From NCBI GenBank assembly GCA_023898565.1, contig CP060228.1, forward strand, positions 25,448-89,447: DNA of 64,000 nucleotides, given 5' to 3'. Position 1 is the stretch's first letter. The number at the start of each line of letters is the position of its first letter. The notes beneath the pieces were generated by a model. That model did not search any database. It was given only the letters and a program-made list of their open reading frames with translations, and was not told where the DNA came from. Positions 5,098 through 31,968 of this stretch are shown here, in pieces. Made by a program: the position numbers and the translations under genes. The DNA comes from Candidatus Nomurabacteria bacterium (GTDB taxonomy: Bacteria; Patescibacteriota; Minisyncoccia; Phycocordibacterales; UBA918).

Positions 5098-6597
5098 ATG
5101 CAACATATCGGAACCCGTATCGCAGACCTGCGCGAAACTTTAGGACTTACCCAGACAGACTTAGCCAAAAAGCTCAAAACCACCCAAAGCGCCATCGCCC
5201 GTATTGAAAGCGGCAAGCAAAATGTGAGTGCCGATATGCTGAAGCGCATCAGCGCAGCCCTAGGGAAAAACCTCATTACCCTCTCCCCTGGCACGATGAA
5301 TATTAAAATCAACGGCGGCAAAAAGCTCACCGGCACCATCGAAACCAACACTTCAAAAAACGGCGCCGTCGGGCTTTTGTGTGCTTCTTTGCTCAACAAA
5401 GGCACCACCACCCTACACCGCATGCCGCGCATTGAAGAAGTACACCGTCTGATTGAAGTGCTTGAGAGTATCGGAGTTAAAGTTGACTGGAGCGGCAGCA
5501 CCGTCACTATTACCCCACCGAAGAAAATCGACCTCAAGAAAATCGACCGTGTTGCCGCCGAGCGCACCCGCAGTATTGTAATGTTCATCGGCCCCCTCAT
5601 TCACCAACTTCAATCATTCTCGCTACCACAATCTGGCGGCTGCAAGCTTGGCAGTCGTACCGTAAAACCTCACTTTTTTGCCCTTGAACACTTTGGTGTC
5701 AATATCGACACTACTGCCACCAGCTTTGACGTGACTGTAAAACCGAAGCAACCAAAAGAAATTATTCTCTATGAATCGGGCGACACCGTGACCGAAAACG
5801 CCCTCTTTGCCGCCGCCGGGAAAACGGGCACCACTACCATTAAGTACGCCACCGCCAACTACATGGTACAGGAAGTGTGCACCTTCCTTCGCTTGCTTGG
5901 CGTGCAGATTGAAGGTCACGGCACCACCACCCTGACGGTTACTGGCGTTGCAGATATCAACCAGAATATTGAATACACCCTCTCAGAAGACCCGACCGAT
6001 AGTATGTTTTTCTTGGCGGCAGCTATTACCACCAATTCCTCCATCACTATCACTCGCTGTCCGATTGAATTTCTTGAACTCGAACTTTTGAAGCTTGAAA
6101 AAATGGGCTTTAAGTACACCAAGTCAAAGCCATACCTCAGCCACAACGGCAGCACCAAGCTGGTCGACATTACGACCAAACCATCTAAACTCGTGGCTCT
6201 GCATGAAAAGATTCACCCAGCAGTGTATCCTGGCCTAAATATCGACAACCTCCCTTTCTTTGCCGTGATTGCTACGCAGGCGGCTGGCCAGACACTGATT
6301 CATGACTGGGTGTATGAGAAACGAGCTATTTACTTCACTGAACTCGACAAACTCGGCGCCGATACCGTACTGGCTGATCCACACCGCATCTTTATTACCG
6401 GACCAACCAAACTCCGCGCTACTGAGCTCGTGTGCCCACCAGCACTTCGCCCAGCCACTATTCTCCTCATTGCCATGCTTGGCGCTGAAGGTGAATCTGT
6501 CCTCAGAAATATCTACAGCATCAATCGTGGCTACGAAAAATTAGTTGACCGCCTCGCTTCGCTCGGCGCCGATGTTTCGTATCTCGATGAATTTTAG
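5098..6597 (+). CDS. murA: UDP-N-acetylglucosamine 1-carboxyvinyltransferase (MurA) with an N-terminal XRE-type helix-turn-helix domain fused in frame
   Basis: N-terminal 60 aa LGLTQTDLAKKLKTTQSAIARIESGK (HTH_3). It is followed by the MurA/EPSP-synthase fold, with the active-site loop QSGGCKLGSRTVKPHF (Cys present) and C-terminal INRGYEKLVDRL. Confidence 0.8.
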   Translation: MQHIGTRIADLRETLGLTQTDLAKKLKTTQSAIARIESGKQNVSADMLKRISAALGKNLITLSPGTMNIKINGGKKLTGTIETNTSKNGAVGLLCASLLNKGTTTLHRMPRIEEVHRLIEVLESIGVKVDWSGSTVTITPPKKIDLKKIDRVAAERTRSIVMFIGPLIHQLQSFSLPQSGGCKLGSRTVKPHFFALEHFGVNIDTTATSFDVTVKPKQPKEIILYESGDTVTENALFAAAGKTGTTTIKYATANYMVQEVCTFLRLLGVQIEGHGTTTLTVTGVADINQNIEYTLSEDPTDSMFFLAAAITTNSSITITRCPIEFLELELLKLEKMGFKYTKSKPYLSHNGSTKLVDITTKPSKLVALHEKIHPAVYPGLNIDNLPFFAVIATQAAGQTLIHDWVYEKRAIYFTELDKLGADTVLADPHRIFITGPTKLRATELVCPPALRPATILLIAMLGAEGESVLRNIYSINRGYEKLVDRLASLGADVSYLDEF

Positions 6598-16153: not shown

Positions 16154-16265
16154 TTACTTTGAAGCATTACAAAGCTTGGCTACCTCAATCGAGTATCATT
16201 AAAATAATACAAAAGTCCGTACGAAATGCTCGCACGGACCCCTGTAAATGCTTCTTTTTCTGATT

Positions 16266-16360
16266 TGCTCCGCGTACTGGACGAGTTTCGAACATTAGAC
16301 TGGTTGGGTATTGAAAAAGATTTGCGGTTCGTTGAGTTTGCAAAATGAAAAAGCCGCCCC
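16266..16360 (-). repeat. Repeat copy A of a ~90-nt intergenic element related to the tRNA-Asn 3' end
   Basis: Shares tttgctccgcg...tttcgaac...caaaatgaaaa with copy B. There is an 11-nt identity with the tRNA-Asn 3' end plus its flank. Confidence 0.6.
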
Positions 16361-16407: not shown

Positions 16408-16731
16408 CTAGCCGATAGCTATACCGACTGCAAGACCTGTAGCGAAGTTTGAGCCGTCATCCTCTGCAGCTTCCTGGATTGATTCGAGTTCCTCGTGATC
16501 CAGCCAGACGCCACTGCACTTTGGACAGCGATCGATAATGATGACTCCATCAAGGATGGGTTCCTTTTTCATCGCCATACCATCGACAGGGCAGTTCCTC
16601 ACTTCTTCGCCCTGCATTCGCAACTCGATTTCACAATCCGAGCAGATTGGATTTCCAGACTCATCCTTGCGACGAGTTCTATTCTCGCCACAGTTTTGAC
16701 AGGTTTCCTTCGATTTGAATAGACCGAACAT
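16408..16731 (-). CDS. Zinc-ribbon protein (zf-TFIIB-like) with a hydrophobic C-terminal tail
   Basis: CQNCG...CSDC and CPVDGMAMKKEPILDGVIIIDRCPKCSGVWLDHEEL match the zf-TFIIB (PF13453-like) pattern. Confidence 0.55.
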   Translation of the reverse strand: MFGLFKSKETCQNCGENRTRRKDESGNPICSDCEIELRMQGEEVRNCPVDGMAMKKEPILDGVIIIDRCPKCSGVWLDHEELESIQEAAEDDGSNFATGLAVGIAIG

Positions 16732-16795: not shown

Positions 16796-16887
16796 ATGCT
16801 CCGCCTGTTGGATGAGTTTCGAACATTGGACTGGATAAGTATAGAAAAGGATTTGCTGTATTGTGATCTGACAAAATGAAAACCGCC
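16796..16887 (-). repeat. Repeat copy B
   Basis: tgctccgcctgttggatgagtttcgaacattggactgg...caaaatgaaaaccgccc, closely similar to copy A. Confidence 0.6.
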
Positions 16888-17417: not shown

Positions 17418-17451
17418 GACATACCTCCTGAAGGTTGTTTAGACTGGTTGT

Positions 17452-17480
17452 ATAATAAAACAGTATTTATACTGTGTCAA
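17452..17480 (-). promoter_or_regulatory. sigma70-like promoter (TTGACA, 17-nt spacer, TATTAT) for the 16914-17417 gene
   Basis: Minus-sense sequence ttgacacagtataaatactgttttattat. Confidence 0.45.
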
Positions 17481-17555: not shown

Positions 17556-17758
17556 AGAGAGATCAATAGATTAGTCGCATTGGTCTAGACCGTTTCCCTT
17601 CTCAACAATTTCAACTAAACGCAGTAATTTAGACGCTTTTTCATACGCCACATCTCGCTCTAAAGTTTCACCGTAATGCTTTTGATAGAGCTCAATAAAT
17701 TGATCTAAGTGCTCGTTAGATATTTTTGCCAAAACTATTTGATACAAAAACTCATGCT

Positions 17759-17947
17759 TTACGCATGAATTTTTTCTGCTTTATTTGATATAGTCTCCTG
17801 ATCTTCCTGCGCTCTTTTTAAAGCGCTGTTGTAGACTCGTTTGCGTTCTCGTGACTTCGTTTCAATAAAAAACTTGTACACAGGGTCAGCTGACGTCTCT
17901 GGACGCTTATAGAATAACCCTTTTATAGTTGCGACTAGGTGTGTCAT
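17759..17947 (-). CDS. Small protein (62 aa) translationally coupled downstream of the zeta-toxin-like kinase
   Basis: 4-nt ATGA overlap with the upstream gene. Basic and charged composition. Confidence 0.4.
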   Translation of the reverse strand: MTHLVATIKGLFYKRPETSADPVYKFFIETKSRERKRVYNSALKRAQEDQETISNKAEKIHA

Positions 17948-18648
17948 ATCAAACTCTCAATCTCATCTTTACTGTACTTTTTTGGCAGGTATGTGTCAAG
18001 ATTATCGATGTTGAATGTAATTTTATACTGTTTGGTCTTAAGGTTTCTTTCAATAAGATCAACCCGAACACGATTACCGTACTCCCGCTTAATCGTAGCC
18101 ACATTGTCTCGCGCGGCAATAAATTGCTCAATGAAGTCTTCTCTTTGAATATTTCTACCGTCCACCTTTTCCCTGTCTTGAGTAAACTTCCAAGCAATCT
18201 CTGGAGGCTGAAGTACATACTCAATGAATATAGGTCTATCTTTACTGAGCGATAGATCAATATTGTTTCTGGCTTGATCAATTTTTGAAAAAGTACCATC
18301 TAACAAAAAACTATACGATTTACTCTTTACATAGTCATGTAATTTATTAACCCCAAGCGCAACAGCACCTTGGAACAAATGAGCTTTCCCCGGTTCATAC
18401 TGAGGGAGCCAAAGGCGAATTGCATCTGGATCAATCTGAACAATCTTATCTTCTGCTCCCATAATCTCATTGATCAGCCGAGTCGAGAACTCAGTCTTTC
18501 CTGCACCCGGAGATCCAGCCATGAAAATTGATACTGGTCTTCCAACAGGAGTAACCTTACCCACAAAATGATCAACAAGCTCCTTTTGATGCTTCTTGAC
18601 GTGTTCTATTGCTTCAGCAGAAAGATTGTTCTCCTCTGGGCTAGTCAT
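17944..18648 (-). CDS. Zeta-toxin family P-loop kinase (PezT/zeta-like, AAA_33)
   Basis: Walker A FMAGSPGAGKTEFS in the zeta-toxin G(S/Q)PG(A/S)GKT form, LLDGTF, size about 230 aa. Confidence 0.65.
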   Translation of the reverse strand: MTSPEENNLSAEAIEHVKKHQKELVDHFVGKVTPVGRPVSIFMAGSPGAGKTEFSTRLINEIMGAEDKIVQIDPDAIRLWLPQYEPGKAHLFQGAVALGVNKLHDYVKSKSYSFLLDGTFSKIDQARNNIDLSLSKDRPIFIEYVLQPPEIAWKFTQDREKVDGRNIQREDFIEQFIAARDNVATIKREYGNRVRVDLIERNLKTKQYKITFNIDNLDTYLPKKYSKDEIESLI

Positions 18649-21600
18649 GAGTTCTCAATAGTAGCAATCTCCTCGGGGGTCAGGTCATAGAGCTTGTAAA
18701 CTAACTCGTCAGCTTCATTCAAATACTTTTCTGCCGGAATGTTTTGCGTAGTTGCTTTAACTATCTCTTCATAACACACTTTTAGCTTATCAATGCTCAC
18801 GGGATCATGATCTAAACTTGGTAATGGCATATCTCTCAAGTGTCTTGGGTAAAAATGCAATCCATTTGACAACAGTTCACTGAAAAACCAGCTAAGTAAT
18901 TTTGAGTTCAGAATTACAGTTACCGCTTTCATATCATACTTTTGTGACAACTTGATCCGTTCCTGACTTAATTTTCCTTTGACTTGGGAGTAGGTTAAGT
19001 GTTCTAACAAGTGATATGGCACAGCATTAATAAGAGCGTCGTTATTGTAATAACCAACATCGTCATACACCGCTTGGATACCAGTCCTTCCAACAACGTT
19101 TTTCACAACGATCTTGTGACTTTCAAACAACTCCGGGAAACAGGGGGCTTTATGTTTGCTTGGTTGATAGTCTAGATACAGCTTTTTCTTTACCACATAC
19201 CTCTCGAAGTTCTTCCCCTCCAAGTACTGCTTATATCCGTCTGCATAAACATCGTGTATAAAGTCACCCTTACCAATTTTGAGTTTTGTGTTATGTATCT
19301 CTGCCCCCTTTGATACATAAAATGCATTTTCAAACTTGATCGTTGATTTAATGATCTTTTGGATTATCTGGACCTTGCCGTCATCTAAATCAAGTTTGAA
19401 ATTGTAATCTGGATGTATTTTAAAAACCTCCTTGCTAACAGTACTGAATGGTAACGAGTATAGATTGGGTAATTTTTTCGTCTTGTGGACATACGCTTCA
19501 AACTCACCTCCTCCTTCAGCATCATCGTCAGCATTAGATATAATACTTATCTGTGTGTCCACTGTAGCAGAGTCAAACACTTGATGGGCTGAGAAGTCTA
19601 GTAATCTTAATATTCTCTTTCCAAGCAAAAGTGCCCTTAATTGCTTACCGTACGATTGCGCAAGCCACTTGTTACTTGTTATATACGATATGATGCCATT
19701 TACTGCCAAAAGGCCAAAAGCTCGCTCATAGAAAAGAACGTATAGGTCATAATGACCTTTCGCTGTAGTGTATATATTTTGATATTTATCTTTCTGTTCT
19801 GGCTTTATTTTCCAAATACTAACGTATGGTGGGTTCCCTATAACTACATCAAACTTAGCTTCCACATCATGCATAAGCAACTGGTCATAGAAGCTGGCAG
19901 GATGCTCATTACTGAACGGATCATAAGTATGAAGCTGGTCGTTAAGCTGTGAGCCAAACATAGTCCCTTGTTTACGAAGAGTTGAGTATTTTGTCTCAAG
20001 CTTTTCACGTTGCTTAGGAGTTGCCTTAAAATACTCTTTCTTGATCTCTAACAAGGTCTCATATTTACCACCATCATCCAAAGCCGCTTCTTCACTCAGA
20101 GGTAAAAGTGTATTGGCACAGACGAATTTAAACTCTAGGTTTGGCAAGGTGTCCACACCACCATTTGGTTTCTTTTCAACATACTCTTGATCAACCACAA
20201 GAGCAAGAAAACTTCGAAGTCGAGCGATCTCAATAGCAAGTGGCTCGATGTCTACTCCGTAAATGTTACGCTCCATAATACCAAGCTTGGTCCGATACGG
20301 ATCAAAACGAGCATCGAGTCGTTCGTATATCTGGACCAGAAGATGCAGCATACCAATTGGAAAAGCCCCAGACCCACAAGCAGGATCAAGCACTTTCATA
20401 CCATCCAGCGCCTTTACAATCTTCTCTCGCAGCACAGGCTCTACCACGTCCCGCTTACTGTTTGTTCCTGACTTTGCCCAATCACTATCAGGAGTATCAA
20501 GCAATCTATCTATAGAGTTTTTAGCCTTATCTCCAGCCTCTAGTGCAGTACACAAGTATGCCCTGACACTCTCTCGACACATATAAGCCACAATCTCTCT
20601 TGGTGTATAGAAGGCACCTTTCGCTTTTCGAGCCTGCTCTCCTGTTTCTTCATTAATCTCAGCTAACAAGTTTTCAAAGATACGTCCGAGCATTTCAGGA
20701 TCAATCGCAATTTGCTCATAGTCAGGAGTTGACTCATCTGTTGTGAAATTAAACTCGCTGAAATGTTCATAGAGATTAACAAAAAAACCCTTTGGGAAAG
20801 GAATGTCACTTCCCCTCCAATCATCTGGGCGATCTTCAAAGAGTCCTCCGTTTAAGTACGGTGTCTTAAGGTCAGGATGCGGACGCTCACGATCATTCTG
20901 TGGAGTATTTAAAACACCAAAGAAGAGCAGCTCGAGTTTTTCCTTATAGTACGAACTGGCATCCGTGTGTGTAGTATCAAAATAATTGACGTCTCTCGAG
21001 ATAAAACCTTTTTTGTCTAGAAACCAACAAAAGAGCAAACGACCGTGTAGACGATTAGCAAAATGGCGAGCTTCGTCAGAACTTTTACCACCCTCCTCTA
21101 GATGAGAGACCAGATGTTTAAAACTGTTGGCAATACCCTTATAAAAAGCTTCGTTAATGCTTTTTAGCTTGAAACTATCCCAAATAGTTAGATGGAGGGC
21201 TTCACGACCCAAATTGGCTACTCCTTCCCATTTGGAGAAGATGTCTTTTTGCGTATTTGAGAGCTGATCTTTCAGTTCAACAATACGAAGAGACTTATTG
21301 TTAGACAATACTATCAGCAACGCATCATTTTCTGGAGTTAAGAAAAAGTCCACTCCTATCTTCGAAGCAGGGTCCTGTCTTGTAAATAAGGCGTCTTCAT
21401 AGTTTGGCGTAAAATGCACCGCGCCAGACACGTAGAGCTTTGACTTCTTCTTAAGTGCATACAACTTTGCTTCGAGAGGACCTTCTTTTGTGTCATTAAG
21501 GGCAAAGCATGCACGATTACTCTTGAACTTAGGATGAGCCTGAAACCAATGATCATAACGCTCGGCATTGGGCAATTTAAGTGCTGTAAGTAGTACATAA

Positions 21601-21749
21601 TCACTACTTGAGGGGTCATCTGTCTTAACTCCATTCACGTCAGCCAACATCAATACCTCACGAGCGACTCCCAATCCAGCCTCTATGGTTCTTTCGCTAC
21701 TTAATTTACTTAGCGCAGCATCAATTTTTTCAAAAGTATTATTTTGCAT
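18645..21749 (-). CDS. gamma-class N6-adenine DNA methyltransferase of Type IIG / MmeI- or PglX-like architecture (1034 aa)
   Basis: Motif X GAFYTPREIV, motif I VLDPACGSGAFPIGML, YGVDIEPLAIEIARL, motif IV VIGNPPYVSIWK. Includes an N-terminal ~350-aa region with a possible D...ExK nuclease-like segment (VDFFL...IVELK) and a C-terminal ~400-aa TRD-like region. Confidence 0.8.
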   Translation of the reverse strand: MQNNTFEKIDAALSKLSSERTIEAGLGVAREVLMLADVNGVKTDDPSSSDYVLLTALKLPNAERYDHWFQAHPKFKSNRACFALNDTKEGPLEAKLYALKKKSKLYVSGAVHFTPNYEDALFTRQDPASKIGVDFFLTPENDALLIVLSNNKSLRIVELKDQLSNTQKDIFSKWEGVANLGREALHLTIWDSFKLKSINEAFYKGIANSFKHLVSHLEEGGKSSDEARHFANRLHGRLLFCWFLDKKGFISRDVNYFDTTHTDASSYYKEKLELLFFGVLNTPQNDRERPHPDLKTPYLNGGLFEDRPDDWRGSDIPFPKGFFVNLYEHFSEFNFTTDESTPDYEQIAIDPEMLGRIFENLLAEINEETGEQARKAKGAFYTPREIVAYMCRESVRAYLCTALEAGDKAKNSIDRLLDTPDSDWAKSGTNSKRDVVEPVLREKIVKALDGMKVLDPACGSGAFPIGMLHLLVQIYERLDARFDPYRTKLGIMERNIYGVDIEPLAIEIARLRSFLALVVDQEYVEKKPNGGVDTLPNLEFKFVCANTLLPLSEEAALDDGGKYETLLEIKKEYFKATPKQREKLETKYSTLRKQGTMFGSQLNDQLHTYDPFSNEHPASFYDQLLMHDVEAKFDVVIGNPPYVSIWKIKPEQKDKYQNIYTTAKGHYDLYVLFYERAFGLLAVNGIISYITSNKWLAQSYGKQLRALLLGKRILRLLDFSAHQVFDSATVDTQISIISNADDDAEGGGEFEAYVHKTKKLPNLYSLPFSTVSKEVFKIHPDYNFKLDLDDGKVQIIQKIIKSTIKFENAFYVSKGAEIHNTKLKIGKGDFIHDVYADGYKQYLEGKNFERYVVKKKLYLDYQPSKHKAPCFPELFESHKIVVKNVVGRTGIQAVYDDVGYYNNDALINAVPYHLLEHLTYSQVKGKLSQERIKLSQKYDMKAVTVILNSKLLSWFFSELLSNGLHFYPRHLRDMPLPSLDHDPVSIDKLKVCYEEIVKATTQNIPAEKYLNEADELVYKLYDLTPEEIATIENS

Positions 21750-24700
21750 AAAATAATAATGCTTCAGAAGACTCTACCGTTAGGTCTTCAGGTGTATGAG
21801 CAGCAGATGACTGTTCTTCATACGCCTCCTTCAAAGCGTTAATTGTTTGAGGCAGCAGCTGACCACTTTCCTTAATGTCTCGATTTGCAGCTGTAAACAA
21901 CTTATTCCATTTTGTCTTAGATTGGATCGTCATAATGTTCTGAACAACTGACTGGAACTGCAAACCAGGCAAAACACGAGCCAGCTCATCAAGCACCTTA
22001 ACTTGGGATGGTTTGAGCTTACCTGGGGTTGATACTGAAACAGCTTCATTTGAAGCCTGTGCTTCTACCAGCCGACGTACAGCTCCCCTGTCTGCAGTAA
22101 TAGTATCTATCTGACGGCTGTTTTCTTCACTAGTTGTACGCAGATATGTAAGGGCCTCTAGCGTCTCAACCGGATCTGACACGTCACCATCTGATGCCAC
22201 AAAAATGTTTGCACGCAGCTCGTCAGTACCATTTTGCGTGTATACTTCGGTAAGAGAAAGTACTGTCGGGCAATCATGATCATTTCGTGCATGGCTAGGA
22301 AAATAACCCCATTTACCTCGAGGTATACGTTCCATTTGTCGGAAGGCTTCTTCTGTTGCGTTTTTACTAAACGCCCTCAAGTCATTTACATACTCATCTT
22401 CAGACAAAAAGTCATCATCATCCTCCAAAGTTTCAGCATACTCAGTGGCTTTTTCAGAGTATAAGTTCTCGACGTACTCAATTGGGTTTTCTTTCTCCCC
22501 CAAGACGGACTGGTCAGTTCCTATGGAACGACGAATACGTTCGACTTTTCCTTCAAGACGTTTTACTAGTTTCAAATAAGCTTCTAGCTGTGCGGCAGGA
22601 TTTAGATTGTAGATCCAAACCTTTTCATGCGGAGAACCCAAACGATTAATACGGCCGTTACGCTGGATCATGCGGACCGGGTTCCAGTGGAGATCAAAGT
22701 TTATGATAATACCAGAGTCCTGCAAGTTTTGACCCTCAGAAAGTACATCTGTAGCAAATAGGTATTGCAACTCATCCTCCGGGGAGACTTCCGCTTTCTT
22801 TGCTCTAGGCGCAAACCTCTTAGTAAGATCTTCAATTTCTTTTATGTTAGCTCCTGAGATAAATGCCGCCTTCTTAGCAAAGTCCTCACCTAGAATAGTT
22901 GGCAATTTGTCCTGAAGATACGCAATCGTGTCTGCATAAAAACTAAAAACAAGCACCTTACCACCATTTAATTTTTCTTCCCGTAAACCATTTATCAAAG
23001 AAACAAATGCCTGGAGTTTATCGTCTTGTTCCTCAAGTAGTTTACAAACAGAGATGAGGGCTTCGATTATCTTTCGATCGCGATTAAGGTCTGTGCGGAT
23101 TGCTGGGATATTGAATACATTATCGTCTGCTTCAACATGATCAGTATCCAGCTCTACTGCTGCATCGGCCTCAACATCATCACCCTGATCCTTCACAATG
23201 TCATAAATTTGCTTGAAGGTAAGAATGTACCCCTTGGTGAGCCACTCTTCGAAGAGATCAATCTTACCGATGTATGCCTCTAGCGAACGACGTAATGCAT
23301 ACGGAGAAGACTCTAACCTCTTTAGGAGACTCACCCGCAGCATATTGTGGATACTAAGTGCACTCATTAACTTAAAACTCTCTCGCTCATTGAGGTCGTA
23401 TGACTTCACCACCTCAATGTCTTTAGCATAAAACTGATGCTTGTATGTCTCTGATCGATACGGAGTGAAGCCAAGAGTAAGAAGAGAGCGGAAGAGTGAC
23501 ACAAATGTGTCAGGAACTCCTTCTCCCTCTACTATTAGTGATTGGTCTCCTTTCACAATATCTAATGGATGCTGTGTTCTTTGGGTCACTTCCAGAAAAC
23601 GGTCGTGGTCAAGATTGGTCACCGACACTCCCTCGAAATGTTCTACACACTTTTGCAGAGTCTCATATACCACCCGATCTCGCTCACCACCATACTCGTA
23701 AGGAGAGGGTACAACCTCACTCTTAGGGAATGTTCGAAGCACACCATCGTTTCCTAACAGACCACCGAACTCTTTTTCAATACCCGCTCTAGTTGAACGC
23801 ACCAAAAACTGCCTCAACCCCTGTCTCATCACTCGATGTATCCGGTCCCAATCAGGCTCTTGGCTGTCTTTTTCTGACTTTTTTATCTCAGTTGAAAGTC
23901 GACTAACAGCATCGTAGAAGTCGATCACTTCATTTTTCTTGGTCGTTTTAAATACAACAGGAAATGAAGTCAGTTTCCCTTTTGCTGCAAGCTGGACCTG
24001 GTTAACAAAGTCTTCAAGCTGGTTATTAATTGGCGTAGCCGTCAACAGAAGCACCTTGCTGTCTGGATTGGCAGCCAGCCACTCTAGTATCTGCTGATGC
24101 CGTTTACTGGCGTTATTTCGAAGGTTGTGCGCTTCATCAATCACAAAGAGGTCTACAGGCGCATACTTATCAATCACACGAGCTTTCTCGATCGCATCGG
24201 GATTTTGCATCGATATCAACTCGTAACCGTTCACTAACCCATGATGATCAGCCAACTCTTCCCTCCACTGCGACTCCAGTCTCTTGGGAACGATTACATT
24301 GATACGCCGAAAACCTTGCTCGACATAATGCTTAATCACTGCCCCACCGGTGATAGTTTTACCAAGACCTACTGAGTCTGAAAGCATGGCCAAACCATGC
24401 TTTTCTAGCTTATTTATTAGTAATTGAGCATTTCGCTGTTGAAACGCATAGAGCACTTTTTCTACGTCGGCCGAGAGTTCAACATTATCAGCAATTTCTT
24501 CCGAATATAAAGTCAGTAGGGTTTTAATGTACATCTCGTATGGGCTGGGTGTGAGATCCCCAACCGGAGAAGTGCGGACCAGCTCAATAAATGCACCAGT
24601 CCAATCTTCTGTTTTTTCATCTGACCACATCTCATCAAACCATGATAAATGACCTGTTTCCTGCTCAGGACTATTAGGCTTATATGTGACTACACGGTAA

Positions 24701-25188
24701 TCAGTCTCAAGTGCGTTCAGTTCTGCGTTGTCTGTGAGGCCATTTCTCGTGAAGTTTGATGAGCCAATTATCCCCACCGCTTCTGGCGACTCATATGTAC
24801 CAAAGATATAGCATTTAGCATGCAAAAAACTCTTTCGATAGACACGAACTTGAACCTTCCCTTCATCAATCAAACTCTTCAGATGAAACACCACCTCTCG
24901 TAACTCTGGAGTTGGATCAATGCGTTGTAGATCCTGGAAAAAGTCCTCATCAGGATAATCAAGCTCAGGTTCCTCAATATCCTTTTTATTATCGCGCTTG
25001 AGTAACGGTTCTCTCCCTATGAGAATACGCACCTGTTTATAGTCTTTCAGAGCATCTATCACTAGTTTCATCCCCTCAATATCCCAATAACCAGTCGCAA
25101 TGGAAAGATGATCGTGCTGCTTACTTGCTTCAAGAAAAGCATCTAGCATTACGCGACGATTGTTATCAATGATATTTGGGAGTGACAT
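21739..25188 (-). CDS. Fusion protein: N-terminal single-HKD phospholipase-D-family nuclease domain plus SNF2/SF2 helicase (1149 aa)
   Basis: HKD motif SFLHAKCYIFG...IIGSSNFTRNG. SNF2 ATPase motifs DSVGLGKTITGG, LFVIDEAHNLRN, LLLTATPINNQLEDF. C-terminal helicase domain LFATDVLSEGQNLQD, HWNPVRMIQRNGRINRLGS. Confidence 0.8.
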   Translation of the reverse strand: MSLPNIIDNNRRVMLDAFLEASKQHDHLSIATGYWDIEGMKLVIDALKDYKQVRILIGREPLLKRDNKKDIEEPELDYPDEDFFQDLQRIDPTPELREVVFHLKSLIDEGKVQVRVYRKSFLHAKCYIFGTYESPEAVGIIGSSNFTRNGLTDNAELNALETDYRVVTYKPNSPEQETGHLSWFDEMWSDEKTEDWTGAFIELVRTSPVGDLTPSPYEMYIKTLLTLYSEEIADNVELSADVEKVLYAFQQRNAQLLINKLEKHGLAMLSDSVGLGKTITGGAVIKHYVEQGFRRINVIVPKRLESQWREELADHHGLVNGYELISMQNPDAIEKARVIDKYAPVDLFVIDEAHNLRNNASKRHQQILEWLAANPDSKVLLLTATPINNQLEDFVNQVQLAAKGKLTSFPVVFKTTKKNEVIDFYDAVSRLSTEIKKSEKDSQEPDWDRIHRVMRQGLRQFLVRSTRAGIEKEFGGLLGNDGVLRTFPKSEVVPSPYEYGGERDRVVYETLQKCVEHFEGVSVTNLDHDRFLEVTQRTQHPLDIVKGDQSLIVEGEGVPDTFVSLFRSLLTLGFTPYRSETYKHQFYAKDIEVVKSYDLNERESFKLMSALSIHNMLRVSLLKRLESSPYALRRSLEAYIGKIDLFEEWLTKGYILTFKQIYDIVKDQGDDVEADAAVELDTDHVEADDNVFNIPAIRTDLNRDRKIIEALISVCKLLEEQDDKLQAFVSLINGLREEKLNGGKVLVFSFYADTIAYLQDKLPTILGEDFAKKAAFISGANIKEIEDLTKRFAPRAKKAEVSPEDELQYLFATDVLSEGQNLQDSGIIINFDLHWNPVRMIQRNGRINRLGSPHEKVWIYNLNPAAQLEAYLKLVKRLEGKVERIRRSIGTDQSVLGEKENPIEYVENLYSEKATEYAETLEDDDDFLSEDEYVNDLRAFSKNATEEAFRQMERIPRGKWGYFPSHARNDHDCPTVLSLTEVYTQNGTDELRANIFVASDGDVSDPVETLEALTYLRTTSEENSRQIDTITADRGAVRRLVEAQASNEAVSVSTPGKLKPSQVKVLDELARVLPGLQFQSVVQNIMTIQSKTKWNKLFTAANRDIKESGQLLPQTINALKEAYEEQSSAAHTPEDLTVESSEALLFYAK

Positions 25189-25219
25189 AGCTAAAAGAGT
25201 ACCATTTTAAGGGGTGTTT

Positions 25220-25633
25220 TCAAATTAAAATGTCACGGGTTATCTCGACCAACTGGTTTGGATTGGACCTGAGATCAACTTCTATAAACTGCTGGTCTAA
25301 CTCCACGCTATCAAAACGGGCACGTTCTTCAGGAAAGATTTCATTATCAAACCAAATGAGGTCATAGTCCCAATCTATCCCTTCGGTTTTGTTTACATCC
25401 CAGACTGTGCCTTTAATGTCGTCAATAAGCCGGTGTATGTCAGGCGAAGTAACTCGCTTTACTATCTCCTGCGCTCTTGTCGGATCACCTTCTCTACAGT
25501 GAGTTGTAAGCCAATAAAGCTCATGTGTTTGTAAGGCCAAAATAAAGTCTTCAAGACCAGCTGCTGGTTTACCGTAATTTTCTGTTAAGTCCTCATGTAT
25601 AAGAGTACCGTCGATATCTAAGTAAACCTTCAT
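25220..25633 (-). CDS. Small HAD-superfamily-like hydrolase (137 aa)
   Basis: N-terminal LDIDGTL (DxDGT motif I). Abuts the FtsK-like gene. Confidence 0.4.
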   Translation of the reverse strand: MKVYLDIDGTLIHEDLTENYGKPAAGLEDFILALQTHELYWLTTHCREGDPTRAQEIVKRVTSPDIHRLIDDIKGTVWDVNKTEGIDWDYDLIWFDNEIFPEERARFDSVELDQQFIEVDLRSNPNQLVEITRDILI

Positions 25634-25634
25634 G

Positions 25635-27068
25635 TTATTCAGGGTCCACTAATACATTCCGTGGCTTCGATCCATCCTGTGGACCTATCACCCCACTATC
25701 CTCTAGAAGATCCAGCAATCGAGCCGCTCGGGAGTACCCAATACGTAAACTACGTTGTATATACGACGTAGAAGCTTTACCTGCCTTAATCACTGCCGCT
25801 TTAGCATCTTCATACAGATCATCTTCTTCTCCATCTCCACCCACCATGGCGTTGAATATCGCATCATTTCCGTTGTAATGATCGAAGTCTAAGGTGTCCA
25901 GTTCCCCTTCATCATACTTCTTCCAAACTTTGACCCGGTCGATGATCTCATCCTCTGAAATATAGAGTCCCTGAATGCGTTGTGGTCTGAAGTCTTCGGG
26001 AGATTGTAAGAGCATATCCCCCTCGCCTCGCAACTTCTCTGCTCCACCGACATCTAGAATGGTTCGTGAGTCCACCTGACAAGCCACCATCATAGCGATA
26101 CGAGCTGGGATATTGGCCTTAATAGATCCTGTAATAACACTGGTGGATGGTCGCTGGGTGGTCAAAATAAGGTGAATACCGACTGCTCTACTCATTTGTG
26201 CTAAGCGGACCACACAAGCTTCAAACTCGGCAGGATATGTCTGCATAATGTCATTGAGCTCGTCTACAATGATCAGAATAAATGGGAGGGCTTCAGGCAG
26301 CTCAGCACGATCCGCTTCCTTAGCTCCTGCTTTTTCCCAGCTTTCTTTAGCAGGCTGGTACACATCCTTGTGGTAGACAGAAATGTTCATTACTCCTTCT
26401 GCTTCCAGAATGTCATATCGCCGCTCCATCTCCTTTACCGCCCAGGAAAGCGCCTGGACAGCCTTCTTGGCCTGTGTAACAGGCTTAGTGAGCGAGTGTG
26501 GCAATCCATCATATAAAGTAAGCTCAACCAGCTTAGGATCAATGAACATAAAACGGACCTGCTCGGGTGTGTTCTTCTCAATCAGTGCGTTAATGAGTGA
26601 GTGAAGCAAGACAGACTTACCCGAACCAGTGGTCCCGGCAGCCAGGATGTGTGGCATCCGGGCAATGTTCATTAAGTGTCGATTACCAAACTCATCAATA
26701 CCGAGTGGCACCACTAGAGGGCCACTTTCTCTGAACTCTTCCCACTTGAGTGCATCGCTAAAGGGTATGGCTGGTAAGTCTTCCTTCTTAGGTACCGTTA
26801 TACCAACCAGCTTCTTGTTAGGGACCGGAGCCTGGATCTCTACGCCGTCATTACTTAGTTCATACCTGAGGTCCTCCACAAAGCTAGCGAAGGCTTTCAT
26901 CCGCATCGGCTTCTTTGGTTGAAGGTAGAAATGGTAACTACTAAACCCATCAACCGCCTCCACCACCTCAACTGGCACCTTAAACTCCTTAAACATGCTC
27001 ACAATGGTCTCTGCCATCTTCTTAACCACTTCCCTACTCTGAGCAAGGGGGGTATGCTTTTTTAACAT
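25635..27068 (-). CDS. FtsK/SpoIIIE-family DNA translocase lacking an N-terminal membrane anchor (TraB/Tra-like)
   Basis: Walker A LAAGTTGSGKSVLLHSL, Walker B ILIIVDELNDIM, C-terminal gamma winged-helix domain YEDAKAAVIKAGKASTSYIQRSLRIGYSRAARLLDLLEDSGVIGPQDGSKPRNVL. Confidence 0.8.
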   Translation of the reverse strand: MLKKHTPLAQSREVVKKMAETIVSMFKEFKVPVEVVEAVDGFSSYHFYLQPKKPMRMKAFASFVEDLRYELSNDGVEIQAPVPNKKLVGITVPKKEDLPAIPFSDALKWEEFRESGPLVVPLGIDEFGNRHLMNIARMPHILAAGTTGSGKSVLLHSLINALIEKNTPEQVRFMFIDPKLVELTLYDGLPHSLTKPVTQAKKAVQALSWAVKEMERRYDILEAEGVMNISVYHKDVYQPAKESWEKAGAKEADRAELPEALPFILIIVDELNDIMQTYPAEFEACVVRLAQMSRAVGIHLILTTQRPSTSVITGSIKANIPARIAMMVACQVDSRTILDVGGAEKLRGEGDMLLQSPEDFRPQRIQGLYISEDEIIDRVKVWKKYDEGELDTLDFDHYNGNDAIFNAMVGGDGEEDDLYEDAKAAVIKAGKASTSYIQRSLRIGYSRAARLLDLLEDSGVIGPQDGSKPRNVLVDPE

Positions 27069-27267: not shown

Positions 27268-27807
27268 CTATTGATAGTGCATATCACCGTCTTCATCGTA
27301 CTCAAAAACACCATTTTCACAAAAAGGACAGGTGTCTCCACTCTCACAAAAGTCCTTATTGCCGCAATGTATGCACGACTCATCTGCTTTATATACAAAT
27401 TTCGGGACCAGATCATCCTTCTTGAACTCATCAGTAAGCAACACCTTGCGATGTTTGAAAAAGTAGTGATGTTGCTCCTCTGGACCAAGTATCCCCCTTT
27501 TTTCTAGATACGGTACAGCGTCATACCAAATGCCGACATCTTCAAGATCCTGCTCGCACACATACTCATAAGCCTTTAAGGCTTGGACCTGCTCCCACAG
27601 CTCGTCAAAGTCTGTTCTGAAGCGATACGTCTTTACATCTGTCTTGCAGTGCTTACAGATCTTTTCGGTAGAGAAAACGCCATCAAAAGGAGCTCTCCTC
27701 TCAAGAGATGCTAACTCCCCCTTCTCATTAAGCGCAATCGGGATGCCTGTCCCGGACCTTAGACAGTGCCCACAATTGTTGCAATAGCTGAATGATATGT
27801 ATCCCAT
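27268..27807 (-). CDS. Cysteine-rich hypothetical protein (multiple CxxC pairs)
   Basis: CNNCGHC...CKHC...CIHCGNKDFC...CPFC. Confidence 0.45.
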   Translation of the reverse strand: MGYISFSYCNNCGHCLRSGTGIPIALNEKGELASLERRAPFDGVFSTEKICKHCKTDVKTYRFRTDFDELWEQVQALKAYEYVCEQDLEDVGIWYDAVPYLEKRGILGPEEQHHYFFKHRKVLLTDEFKKDDLVPKFVYKADESCIHCGNKDFCESGDTCPFCENGVFEYDEDGDMHYQ

Positions 27808-27811
27808 ATCT

Positions 27812-28216
27812 TTACTTTTCTAGACGTAGTTTGAACTCTTCTTTTACCCGACCAGCTATCTCTGACTCCCACCCTTCAGCATTAGATAAAAAATACGCAA
27901 CAATTGACCTTGCGGAGTCAGACCCGTAGCTGTCAGCCATAGTCTCTATCTCCATCATCGCCGTCACATACGGGTAGGCACTTCGAGACACACTATCACC
28001 CCAATCCTCCATAATAATGTCCGCCAGTTGACTCAACGTTAGTTCTGAAAGATCTTGATTGTCGTACCAGTGCTCTGCTTTCCCATCAAAGAAATGTTGG
28101 CACGAGTCACACATCCACTGTTTCTGGACCTCATTGGATATATCCATGAGATCACACATGTCTTCTACACTCGTTGCCTCATTTCCACCACATTTGGGAC
28201 AGATCACTTTTGTCAT
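27812..28216 (-). CDS. Zinc-ribbon hypothetical protein
   Basis: MTKVICPKCGG...CDSC. Confidence 0.45.
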   Translation of the reverse strand: MTKVICPKCGGNEATSVEDMCDLMDISNEVQKQWMCDSCQHFFDGKAEHWYDNQDLSELTLSQLADIIMEDWGDSVSRSAYPYVTAMMEIETMADSYGSDSARSIVAYFLSNAEGWESEIAGRVKEEFKLRLEK

Positions 28217-28226
28217 ATCAAACCTC

Positions 28227-28619
28227 TTAAGTCCCAGAGACAGCGTCAAAGAAACTAATAACTAAACCAATCAACGCCCAAACCCCAATAAATATGAACA
28301 GGTATTTAAAAACTTTACTCTGAGTTCTAGGCTCATCAGATCCATTACCATCAACACTATTGCCTCCGTTTTTTGATTGTCTCTTTGGACCAATGTCTGG
28401 ATTATTACGCTTGATAGCTTCGACAATATCAATCGCAAAAAAGAAGCGTTGTAATAGGAGGGTTCCTATAACATATCCGAGCACCCCTAAAGGAAATATC
28501 TTACCGATAATAAAAATAGTGATCAACGCTACTACAGATGCCTGGAAGTTTCTATGCCGTTTTACCTCTTTGCCTATCTGCTCCTGGGTCTTAACCGGCT
28601 TTTCTTGCTGGTCTTTCAT
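28227..28619 (-). CDS. Small membrane protein, hypothetical
   Basis: Two TM segments with a Gly/Asn-rich loop. Confidence 0.4.
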   Translation of the reverse strand: MKDQQEKPVKTQEQIGKEVKRHRNFQASVVALITIFIIGKIFPLGVLGYVIGTLLLQRFFFAIDIVEAIKRNNPDIGPKRQSKNGGNSVDGNGSDEPRTQSKVFKYLFIFIGVWALIGLVISFFDAVSGT

Positions 28620-30351: not shown

Positions 30352-31935
30352 ATGGAAAAAGCAGTAATCTACGCACGAGTATCATCAAAAGAACAAGAAG
30401 AAACTGGCTACTCCTTACCAGCCCAGCTGGACCTACTTCGTAAATACGCTGAGAAAAATGGTTTTAAGGTCTGCAAAGAGTTTTCTATTGCTGAGTCTGC
30501 GACGAGTCAAAGCGGTCGTAAGACCTTCCAAGCAATGCTTGCGTACACCAACCAGAAGAAAATACACACGATCATTTGTGAAAAGATCGACCGACTCACT
30601 AGGACCCCTAAAGATGCAGGTGTAATTGACGACTGGGTGCGCTCAACTGAAACCCGGACCGTCCACTTTGCCAAAGAAGGCTTCATTCTCAGTAAGCAAA
30701 CCAAAGCGCACGAGAACCTCGTTTGGAACATGAAAGTAGCTATCGCTAAGTTCTACACCGACAATCTATCTGAGGAGGTTCGTAAAGGTCAGGCTGCCAA
30801 GATTGCTGCCGGCCACCTCCCCACCAAACCACCGCTTGGATACCGAACCGTCGGGGAGCAAGGTAAGAAGGTGCACGTTATTGACGACAACACAGCCCCG
30901 CTGGTTAAGAAAATGTTTGAGATGTATGCCACCGGGAACTTCTCTGTCGTCGAACTAACAAAACGAATTAATCTGATAGGTCTCCGTAATCGAAACGGGA
31001 ACAAGCTGAGCAAGACACGAGTTCATGACTTTCTCTCAGACCCATTCTATTACGGAGACATGCGTTGGAACGACAAGATATTCAAAGGAGCTCATGAACC
31101 ACTGATCACTCTGGAGCTCTTCAACAAGGTTCAGGAGAAGCTAGGTCGAGGTACTGCTAGCCCATACTACCGAACTCATCCACTGCTATACAAAGCGAAG
31201 GTCACTTGTGCCACTTGCGGCTTCTTGGTGAGTTGGGAAAGACAGAAAGGACACGTCTATGGCTCTTGTAAGCATTGTAAGAGCCCTCTAGGAGCATCAT
31301 CCAAGTACTTACGAGAAGAAGAGTTAGACAAGAAGATCATCGAGAAAGTGCTAAAAGTAGCACCTAAGAACCAAAAGGTGCTCGACATCCTCAACCAAGC
31401 GTTAAAAGAGGACGCTGAGGAGGAAATACATGCTTACGAAACCAGTAAACGCCAGCTGGAAGAAAACCTACGCCGTGGCGACCTAAGAGTCGACACAGCT
31501 TACACGGACCGCTTAGATGGACGTATCGGCACAGAACGATATGACGGTATTAAAGCTGAATGGGATGCAGAAAGAAAAGCGATCTTGAACGAACTGACTC
31601 GTCTTAGCAACGATAAGTCAAAGTATTACGACGCTGGTTTCTCAATCCATGTCTTGGCTACAAAAACCCGAGAGATCTACGAGAGTCAACACGTTACAGA
31701 CGATGATCGTCGCCTGCTGTTAAGTTACGCCTTCAACAAAGTCACACTAGAAAGAGGCAACATCGAAGTTGAGTACACTCCAGCGTTCGAATATCTGCAA
31801 AAATGGGTACCTGCAGTAAACCAGAGTTTCGAACTTGCAAATAGTGGCTCTAATGAAAGACAAAAGGTGCCTTTCGGCACCTCTCATCCTACTTTGCTCC
31901 GCGGGCAGGATTCGAACCTGCGACCAATCGGTTAA
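30352..31935 (+). CDS. Large serine recombinase (resolvase/invertase N-terminal catalytic domain plus recombinase and zinc-ribbon domains). The 3' end overlaps tRNA-Asn.
   Basis: AVIYARVSSKEQ catalytic Ser motif. Central recombinase domain. CATCG...CKHC zinc ribbon. Coiled-coil tail. Confidence 0.85.
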   Translation: MEKAVIYARVSSKEQEETGYSLPAQLDLLRKYAEKNGFKVCKEFSIAESATSQSGRKTFQAMLAYTNQKKIHTIICEKIDRLTRTPKDAGVIDDWVRSTETRTVHFAKEGFILSKQTKAHENLVWNMKVAIAKFYTDNLSEEVRKGQAAKIAAGHLPTKPPLGYRTVGEQGKKVHVIDDNTAPLVKKMFEMYATGNFSVVELTKRINLIGLRNRNGNKLSKTRVHDFLSDPFYYGDMRWNDKIFKGAHEPLITLELFNKVQEKLGRGTASPYYRTHPLLYKAKVTCATCGFLVSWERQKGHVYGSCKHCKSPLGASSKYLREEELDKKIIEKVLKVAPKNQKVLDILNQALKEDAEEEIHAYETSKRQLEENLRRGDLRVDTAYTDRLDGRIGTERYDGIKAEWDAERKAILNELTRLSNDKSKYYDAGFSIHVLATKTREIYESQHVTDDDRRLLLSYAFNKVTLERGNIEVEYTPAFEYLQKWVPAVNQSFELANSGSNERQKVPFGTSHPTLLRGQDSNLRPIG

Positions 31936-31968
31936 CAGCCGACTGCTCTACCGCTGAGCTACCGCGGA
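31897..31968 (-). tRNA. tRNA-Asn (anticodon GTT)
   Basis: Minus-sense TCCGCGG TA GCTC AGCGGTA GAGC A GTCGG CTGTTAA CCGAT TGGTC GCAGG TTCGAAT CCTGC CCGCGGA G cloverleaf. CCA is not encoded. Confidence 0.85.

Follow-up and report, generated by a model that had tools for sequence, protein, structure and literature searches.

The locus described here lies on the minus strand of a 64,000-nucleotide (nt) stretch of a Candidatus Nomurabacteria genome (contig CP060228.1, positions 25,448 to 89,447), referred to below in its full length as the window. It consists of a gene for a zeta-like kinase followed directly by a small open reading frame (ORF) of 62 amino acids (aa), and these two genes stand at the end of a minus-strand string whose order is FtsK-like translocase, 137-aa ORF, PLD nuclease-SNF2 helicase fusion (PLD-SNF2), methyltransferase (MTase), kinase and 62-aa ORF. 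The features that matter first are the following.

17944-18648, minus strand: zeta-like kinase ORF of 234 aa, the putative toxin (ORF and Pfam)
17759-17947, minus strand: small basic ORF of 62 aa, the putative antitoxin or neutraliser (conservation beside the kinase)
18645-21749, minus strand: Eco57I/MmeI-type (type IIG-like) N6-adenine MTase of 1034 aa with a TaqI_C specificity domain (Pfam, PADLOC)
18645-18648, minus strand: ATGA overlap of the MTase stop and the kinase start (direct sequence reading)
17944-17947, minus strand: ATGA overlap of the kinase stop and the small-ORF start (direct sequence reading)

An earlier note on this DNA had described a zeta-toxin-family kinase with no epsilon-type antitoxin gene ahead of it, and on this point the ORF coordinates and the Pfam match agree: no epsilon- or PezA-type gene lies upstream of the kinase, the upstream gene being the 1034-aa MTase. 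Both gene junctions that the note had pointed out were found in the sequence, each reading TCAT on the plus strand and ATGA on the coding strand, i.e. a 4-bp stop/start overlap, and the second of them implies translational coupling of the kinase and the small ORF. The basic character ascribed to the 62-aa product was likewise confirmed (13 K/R versus 8 D/E). Dozens of comparably small ORFs are listed in this AT-rich stretch, and by length alone the 62-aa ORF would be insignificant; it is taken as a real gene because it is conserved beside the kinase in homologous loci. NCBI carries the exact kinase as a "zeta toxin family protein" from a 952-kb contig of a Candidatus Nomurabacteria metagenome-assembled genome (MAG), and the 62-aa protein as hypothetical protein USN88840.1.

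Pairing of the kinase with the small gene

In each of the first three homologous contigs the kinase stop shares 4 bp with an overlapping ORF of 63-64 aa, amid unrelated flanking genes, and in three loci with kinases 62-70% identical to that of the window the small ORFs were 50-55% identical to the 62-aa one. In a collection with a single genome for each species, at least 553 kinase loci were confirmed by tblastn, and the best 80 of them came from many Patescibacteria lineages and from Gamma- and Betaproteobacteria (Halomonas, Vreelandella, Gilvimarinus). Small ORFs were then scanned for in 85 related loci of ~12 kb each. A hidden Markov model (HMM) made from four small proteins matched a sequence adjoining the kinase in 61 of the 85 loci, and nowhere else in them; after iteration it gave exactly one match in 84, the 85th locus being cut at the kinase stop. 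The small gene was located 3' of the kinase in 82 loci and immediately 5' of it in two (L026, L035). Where a start could be assigned, the 4-bp ATGA overlap of the two genes recurred in 40 of 72 pairs, and most of the others were spaced at about -10 to +20 nt.

The same pairing was observed in independent sets outside the HMM training, namely 45 IMG/VR contigs, a 19-kb Shewanella plasmid, in which the partner is an annotated 54-aa "hypothetical protein", and reverse look-ups from small proteins, every one of which landed beside a Zeta_toxin gene. A census of 124 non-duplicate related loci, with an assessable intact kinase in 116, showed a small homologue adjacent and on the same strand in all 116, which settles in the affirmative whether the 62-aa ORF is conserved in homologous loci.

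The two genes decay unequally. In six loci (L061, L088, L105, L130, L134 and L136) the kinase was disrupted, either by an in-frame stop or by a split into two ORFs, next to an intact small gene, and the converse state, a broken small gene next to an intact kinase, did not occur among the 124 non-duplicate loci. The pairwise identities of the kinases and of the small proteins were correlated (Mantel r 0.72, versus at most 0.16 in 500 permutations), with the small protein diverging faster (~25% identity where kinases are ~44% identical). Adjacent co-oriented genes, varied contexts and a patchy, mobile spread were all found, as in type II toxin-antitoxin modules generally. We regard the small ORF as the obligate, co-inherited partner of the kinase across phyla, and the pair, hereafter the cassette, as an autonomous and horizontally mobile unit that moves between unrelated contexts.

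The kinase and its candidate antitoxin

The kinase matched the Pfam family Zeta_toxin (PF06414) with an E-value of 7.4e-32 and 110.8 bits (cutoff 22.3) over profile positions 12-195 of 199. It has the zeta-type P-loop phosphotransferase fold, and its model is structurally closest, along nearly its whole length, to zeta, PezT and ng_zeta1. Its sequence resembles the solved zeta toxins only weakly: as a single sequence it found PezT at an E-value of 1.4e-3, while a profile of 30 family members (44-71% identical to the window protein) found among solved structures PezT (8e-8), PSTK (3e-6), ng_zeta1 (2e-4) and zeta (6e-3). The Walker A motif GSPGAGKT occupies residues 45-52, with K51 and T52 on the P-loop; D75 aligns with PezT D66 and zeta D67, the catalytic base; and a DGT motif spans D117-T119, T119 being aligned with zeta T118. 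The roles of the aligned residues were taken from the work on PezT in which the D66T substitution abolished both activity and toxicity (PMC3062530). Because all 30 aligned kinases share, without exception, the Walker A residues K51 and T52 together with D75, R78, D117, T119, R159 and R165, the phosphotransfer machinery is taken to be intact.

The substrate pocket departs from the classical one. In zeta, Arg120 contacts the UDP phosphates of UDP-N-acetylglucosamine (UDP-GlcNAc) and T128 contacts the uracil (PMC3062530). At the position of Arg120 the window kinase has S121, and none of the 30 aligned sequences has Arg there, the residues found being Ser, Thr, Ala, Gln or Lys; at that of Thr128 it has Asn129, an invariant Asn in the family; and the equivalent of Glu100 shifts by one residue between two alignments. 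The catalytic Asp for which the earlier note asked is kept, as is the equivalent of zeta Thr118, but the note's view of the protein as a kinase of UDP-GlcNAc fared less well: such an identity is possible but unproven, since the Arg120 contact is replaced, and the altered pocket makes the protein a candidate for a new zeta-kinase target.

This subfamily is large (>1,300 clusters at 90% identity). PADLOC has no model for it and returned only a weak P-loop match to PDC-M37B. A 2023 survey of PezT/zeta proteins reported "orphan" toxins, having searched for partners upstream only (PMC10532202). The pairing described above shows that this cross-phylum subfamily, which includes many Patescibacteria, is not orphan. 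No description of the subfamily or of its partner was found in the literature on zeta toxins/PF06414, on Candidate Phyla Radiation (CPR) bacteria, on hsdR/hsdS or on anti-phage defence.

On a 192-kb P. aeruginosa plasmid (L086, NZ_CP096947.1, 51472-52281), a "zeta toxin family protein" of 269 aa that is more distantly related and has no small partner is encoded next to a strawberry-notch-like gene and a PcfJ-domain gene; it belongs to a different subfamily, possibly with a different role.

The partner family comprises 1,053 cluster representatives (profile search at E <= 0.001, clusters at 50% identity). Its members are 43-79 aa long and consistently basic, with a median pI of 10.1, and share a core F-x-x-F-F...(A/S)S..EKK.V...(A)..DQ in which Q50 is invariant and F26 nearly so. 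The 150 best representatives were all stand-alone proteins of 40-95 aa, with no informative fusion among them. An AlphaFold2 model of the 62-aa protein predicted with high confidence a helix at residues 22-29 and a long helix at 32-61, and with low confidence an N-terminal helix and a linker. No significant Pfam match was obtained with 63 members at E-values up to 1, and nothing significant with the model in Foldseek; a precomputed match of one homologue to PF27179.1 was not reproduced when our Pfam copy was scanned. PADLOC has no model for the small protein.

Several known systems resemble the cassette in part. Like epsilon/zeta and PezA/PezT, the window kinase conserves the P-loop, the catalytic Asp and the Thr of the (E/D)GT motif, and its gene shares an operon with a small helical partner and is carried by mobile elements. 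Unlike them, it is only 13-18% identical to the kinases of those systems (Streptococcus), its partner is encoded downstream and is a basic protein of ~60 aa without a helix-turn-helix domain or similarity to epsilon or to the C-terminal domain of PezA, and Ser, Thr or Ala replaces Arg120 of zeta, so that UDP-GlcNAc specificity is not assured. As no epsilon or PezA gene lies upstream, the window operon is evidently not an epsilon/zeta or PezAT operon. The gonococcal ng_zeta1 (Neisseria gonorrhoeae), to which residue equivalence was inferred from coordinates, also differs in being a 401-aa protein with an extra domain and an upstream epsilon-type antitoxin, and in preferring UDP-N-acetylmuramic acid.

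A closer parallel in gene order is AvrRxo1/Arc1, the only characterised case of a zeta-fold toxin followed by its antitoxin, in which toxin pseudogenes keep arc1 (PMC4938570), just as the cassette has the putative toxin first and retains the partner beside apparent kinase pseudogenes. However, AvrRxo1 (Xanthomonas and relatives) is 378-421 aa long, has additional domains and is able to act as a type III effector, and Arc1 is 81-121 aa long with a KExFD...YExxYY motif that is absent from the small family, for which no sequence match was found among Protein Data Bank (PDB) chains that included the AvrRxo1-ORF1:ORF2 complex (entry 4z8q). Because both this motif and any similarity to Arc1 are absent, the cassette is evidently not an AvrRxo1/Arc1 module.

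The reading that we favour, with moderate confidence, is that the kinase and the small protein form a toxin-first, zeta-type toxin-antitoxin or abortive-infection cassette with a new, unrelated antitoxin family. Translational coupling would deliver the small protein together with the kinase, and this small, largely helical, partly disordered basic protein would bind the kinase and hold it inactive. If the supply of the small protein stopped, through loss of the island or phage shut-off of host expression, the small protein would decay, and the freed kinase would phosphorylate an essential metabolite of nucleotide type, whether a UDP-sugar, as zeta, PezT and ng_zeta1 do, or another one, with growth arrest as the result. 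In the window, the cassette is the last cistron pair of the PLD-SNF2 and MTase operon, where it would stabilise the island, back up restriction, or both. A toxin-antitoxin model predicts obligate pairing, flips of gene order, co-divergence, mobility and, above all, asymmetric decay. The suggestion that the 62-aa ORF is an antitoxin in reversed order is accordingly favoured by the obligate pairing, the order flips and the asymmetric decay, whereas neutralisation and toxicity, along with binding, lability and the substrate, are properties that we infer.

Some observations weigh against this reading. The toxin-first order is unusual for such modules, and the replacement of the Arg120 contact leaves the classical zeta target uncertain. 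Two profile searches of the PDB with the small family, at E-values up to 10, gave nothing significant, no similarity to epsilon, PezA or Arc1 being detected, and Pfam, PDB and Foldseek searches of the small protein revealed no domain recognisable as DNA-binding. Its basic charge could reflect binding of nucleic acid instead of plugging of a toxin, and the six kinase disruptions could be either true pseudogenes or assembly errors.

We consider it unlikely that the kinase is instead a non-toxic accessory enzyme acting on a metabolite, a nucleic-acid end or an envelope precursor, with the small protein as a regulatory or substrate-presenting subunit. The Zeta_toxin family and the fold neighbours of the kinase do include PSTK, polynucleotide kinases and Kti12, and the missing Arg, a basic partner that could bind RNA or DNA, and the abundance of the family in CPR bacteria with tiny genomes would all suit such an enzyme. 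Its patchy spread would not, reaching as it does across distant phyla and unrelated contexts and taking in mobile elements as well as prophage-like contigs and a plasmid, and no conserved metabolic neighbours were found. Moreover, recurrent kinase pseudogenes next to an intact partner are typical of addiction modules and not of useful enzymes, and the three characterised zeta toxins are the closest structural relatives, along nearly the whole length.

The partner of the kinase belongs to an unnamed downstream family of ~60 aa with no model in the Pfam copy searched and no solved structure. If the cassette is a toxin-antitoxin module, it would bring a new antitoxin family and be the second toxin-first zeta system after AvrRxo1/Arc1. 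For CPR bacteria, about whose defence little has been learned, it would also provide a candidate module of addiction or abortive infection, and it would be a tractable example of the repeated wiring of a toxin module into restriction-modification (R-M) operons. We judge the cassette to be of moderate interest to the toxin-antitoxin and defence field, and of more if its target or its coupling to R-M proves unusual.

Genomic contexts and the link to restriction-modification

The cassette was found in islands, prophage-like contigs, a plasmid, R-M operons and among housekeeping genes. The arrangement of a large MTase ahead of the kinase, which the earlier note proposed to look for in other genomes, did not recur: none of the other 84 loci that were searched has a homologue of the MTase, not even L004, a syntenic relative of the window island. 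Homologues of either the MTase or PLD-SNF2 were lacking in 80 of 81 other loci, the exception being L004. Among the 150 nearest-neighbour proteins of 79 loci no family appeared in more than three cases. Because its homologues are absent elsewhere and the neighbours are heterogeneous, the MTase is not a conserved partner of the kinase.

All-against-all clustering of 801 neighbouring ORFs from the 81 other loci identified subunits of type I R-M systems as the sole recurrent neighbours, each in at most eight loci. A recurrent third cassette gene was sought in the same clustering and rejected, as only these subunits emerged. Type I R-M genes lay within 6 kb of the cassette in 11 of the 81 loci, often in an operon-like register, compared with ~1% expected for a random gene by a rough estimate, for which reason we regard the association of the cassette with R-M as real but facultative. 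The order was hsdM-hsdS-kinase-small gene-hsdR in two loci (L065, L030), hsdS-GmrSD-kinase-small gene-hsdR in a third (L066) and hsdM-hsdS-hsdR-kinase-small gene in a fourth (L078), whereas in loci of the Halomonas group the cassette precedes hsdM-hsdS-hsdR and lies directly 3' of guaB-guaA. GmrSD, an OLD-family protein and AbiEii were also encoded near the cassette in some loci.

The position 3' of guaB-guaA was seen in four loci of the Halomonas/Vreelandella group (L087, L090, L091 and L049). What comes after the cassette is a type I R-M operon in three of them (L049, L090, L091), and in L087 a mixture of guaA 3'-end fragments (GMP_synt_C) and a helicase/DUF2726 gene, interleaved with one another. 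These arrangements suggest that the guaA 3' end may be an island hotspot in this group.

Embedding of a toxic module in an immunity operon has precedents. PrrC is a suicide module within the EcoprrI type Ic R-M operon (PMC3632139), and PezAT was recently found joined to Hachiman loci as Pez-Ham (PMC13064477); the cassette resembles both in the window and in the 11 of 81 related loci with R-M genes. Instead of a plain addiction module, the cassette could be a dedicated guard of R-M and other DNA-targeting immunity, in which the small protein would sense the state of that immunity or invading nucleic acid and release a kinase with a target other than UDP-GlcNAc, for instance a nucleotide cofactor or the end of a nucleic acid of phage or host. 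We hold this to be unlikely; if true, it would constitute a new kinase-based abortive-infection mechanism common to CPR bacteria, Proteobacteria and prophages.

A tighter dependence, in which the kinase is an R-M-coupled abortive-infection effector held in check mainly by the co-expressed R-M proteins, as PrrC is, and set free when a phage inhibits or overwhelms them, with the small protein as adaptor or co-factor, seems quite unlikely. It would account for the overlap of the kinase start with the MTase stop in the window, for the insertion of the cassette between hsdS and hsdR (L065, L030, L066), after hsdR (L078) or before hsdM (L049, L090, L091), on the same strand as the hsd genes and with short gaps, and for a frequency of nearby R-M genes far above the expectation; accessory genes are moreover known in R-M operons, PrrC being the worked example (PMC3632139). 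However, PrrC, a HEPN anticodon nuclease, lacks an antitoxin of its own and is kept silent by the R-M complex, whereas in the cassette a dedicated small partner is always present, as the sole invariant neighbour, and the linkage to R-M is facultative. Some 85% of loci lack a nearby R-M gene, and many lie among housekeeping genes. The R-M types vary by locus, type I in some and PLD-SNF2 with a type IIG-like MTase in the window, which makes control by specific protein-protein contacts unlikely, and location in defence islands is expected for ordinary toxin-antitoxin modules too. The proposal of the earlier note that the kinase is controlled by its R-M-like partners thus finds no support as a general mechanism, with no homologues of those partners in 80 of 81 loci, but was partly right about a link to R-M, as seen in 11 of 81.

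Enzymes that act as antitoxins by modifying their toxins exist, the TakA/TglT kinase being an example. It is nevertheless highly improbable that the roles are reversed here in the manner of a type VII system, with a harmful small peptide neutralised through phosphorylation by the kinase: Ser recurs in the FS..F and (A/S)S motifs of the small protein, and the model gives it, at low confidence, an amphipathic helix at the N-terminus, but its conserved residues are F26 and Q50 with no invariant Ser, Thr or Tyr, the six loci with a broken kinase keep a small gene that would be lethal or counter-selected were the peptide toxic, and known zeta-fold kinases target nucleotide-type small molecules.

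The island and the remaining features of the window

The other features of the locus and its surroundings are listed here.

21739-25188, minus strand: PLD(HKD) nuclease-SNF2 helicase fusion of 1149 aa (Pfam, PADLOC)
25635-27068, minus strand: FtsK-like translocase
30352-31935, plus strand: large serine recombinase, its 3' end overlapping tRNA-Asn
31896-31968, minus strand: tRNA-Asn, the island boundary
17752-17768, reported on the plus strand: terminator-like hairpin with a 6-bp stem, spanning the small-ORF stop codon (consensus scan)
17971-17999, minus strand: sigma-70-like promoter match TTGACA-17-TACAGT, 10/12, within the 3' end of the kinase gene (consensus scan)
17571-17747, minus strand: TTG-initiated ORF of 58 aa (ORF list), unsupported as part of the module

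The region from ~16.25 to 31.97 kb has a G+C content below that of its flanks, with a dip to 0.39-0.46. Degenerate copies of the 3' part of the tRNA (TGCTCCGCG..GGA..TTCGAAC) were found at 16253-16351 and 16797-16882, within 86-nt direct repeats ~15 kb from tRNA-Asn, and a shorter stretch of this repeat occupies 17439-17463; these copies look like attachment-site (att) remnants of one or several integrations. Because of the low G+C content, the serine recombinase at tRNA-Asn and the tRNA-part copies, the operon is cargo of an island integrated at tRNA-Asn.

Within this operon the PLD-SNF2 and MTase genes overlap by 11 nt. The best PADLOC match of PLD-SNF2 was the candidate C3a139 "HKD+Snf2" (E 1.8e-49), with weaker matches to DrmD, DpdE and BrxH-like proteins, and in the MTase, whose presumed restriction partner is PLD-SNF2, Pfam showed no nuclease domain over the first ~230 residues. 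The two proteins make up a two-gene R-M-like system that is not canonical DISARM, BREX or type IIG.

The syntenic relative L004, from a Pacebacteria MAG, shares ~68% nucleotide identity with the window island and has the order FtsK gene, 137-aa gene, a stand-alone 193-aa PLD ORF, kinase and small gene, with neither the SNF2 part nor the MTase. Its PLD ORF (5127-5708) matches the N-terminus of the fusion in the window (window 24686-25226). This PLD-only state either arose by a ~6-kb deletion or is ancestral and predates the fusion.

The head of the island (window 25220-27068, minus strand) encodes an FtsK/SpoIIIE-type translocase of 477 aa with a gamma domain and its 137-aa neighbour, for which no Pfam match was obtained; both are kept in L004 (1269-3698). 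These two proteins may serve DNA transfer of the element, as opposed to the cell-division role of FtsK.

Two signals from the consensus scan are of low weight. The hairpin at 17752-17768 is flanked on both sides by T/A-rich runs and, in our own reading of it on the minus strand, may be a weak terminator-like site ending the operon. The promoter-like site at 17971-17999 lies upstream of the small ORF and could add to expression of the small gene.

The second small TTG-initiated ORF mentioned in the earlier note exists and encodes 58 aa, but at 17571-17747 and not at 17561-17740. As a third component of the module it was rejected: it has no homologue in the related loci, forms a singleton cluster and is outside the NCBI annotation, and its only Pfam match, to Annexin, was below threshold.

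Finally, small Cys-rich zinc-ribbon proteins are encoded on the minus strand inside or at the edge of the island (27268-28249 and 16408-16731). A 179-aa ORF is CxxC-rich and without a Pfam match, and among the zinc-ribbon proteins there was one match to Zn_ribbon_IS1595 and one of the TFIIB type.

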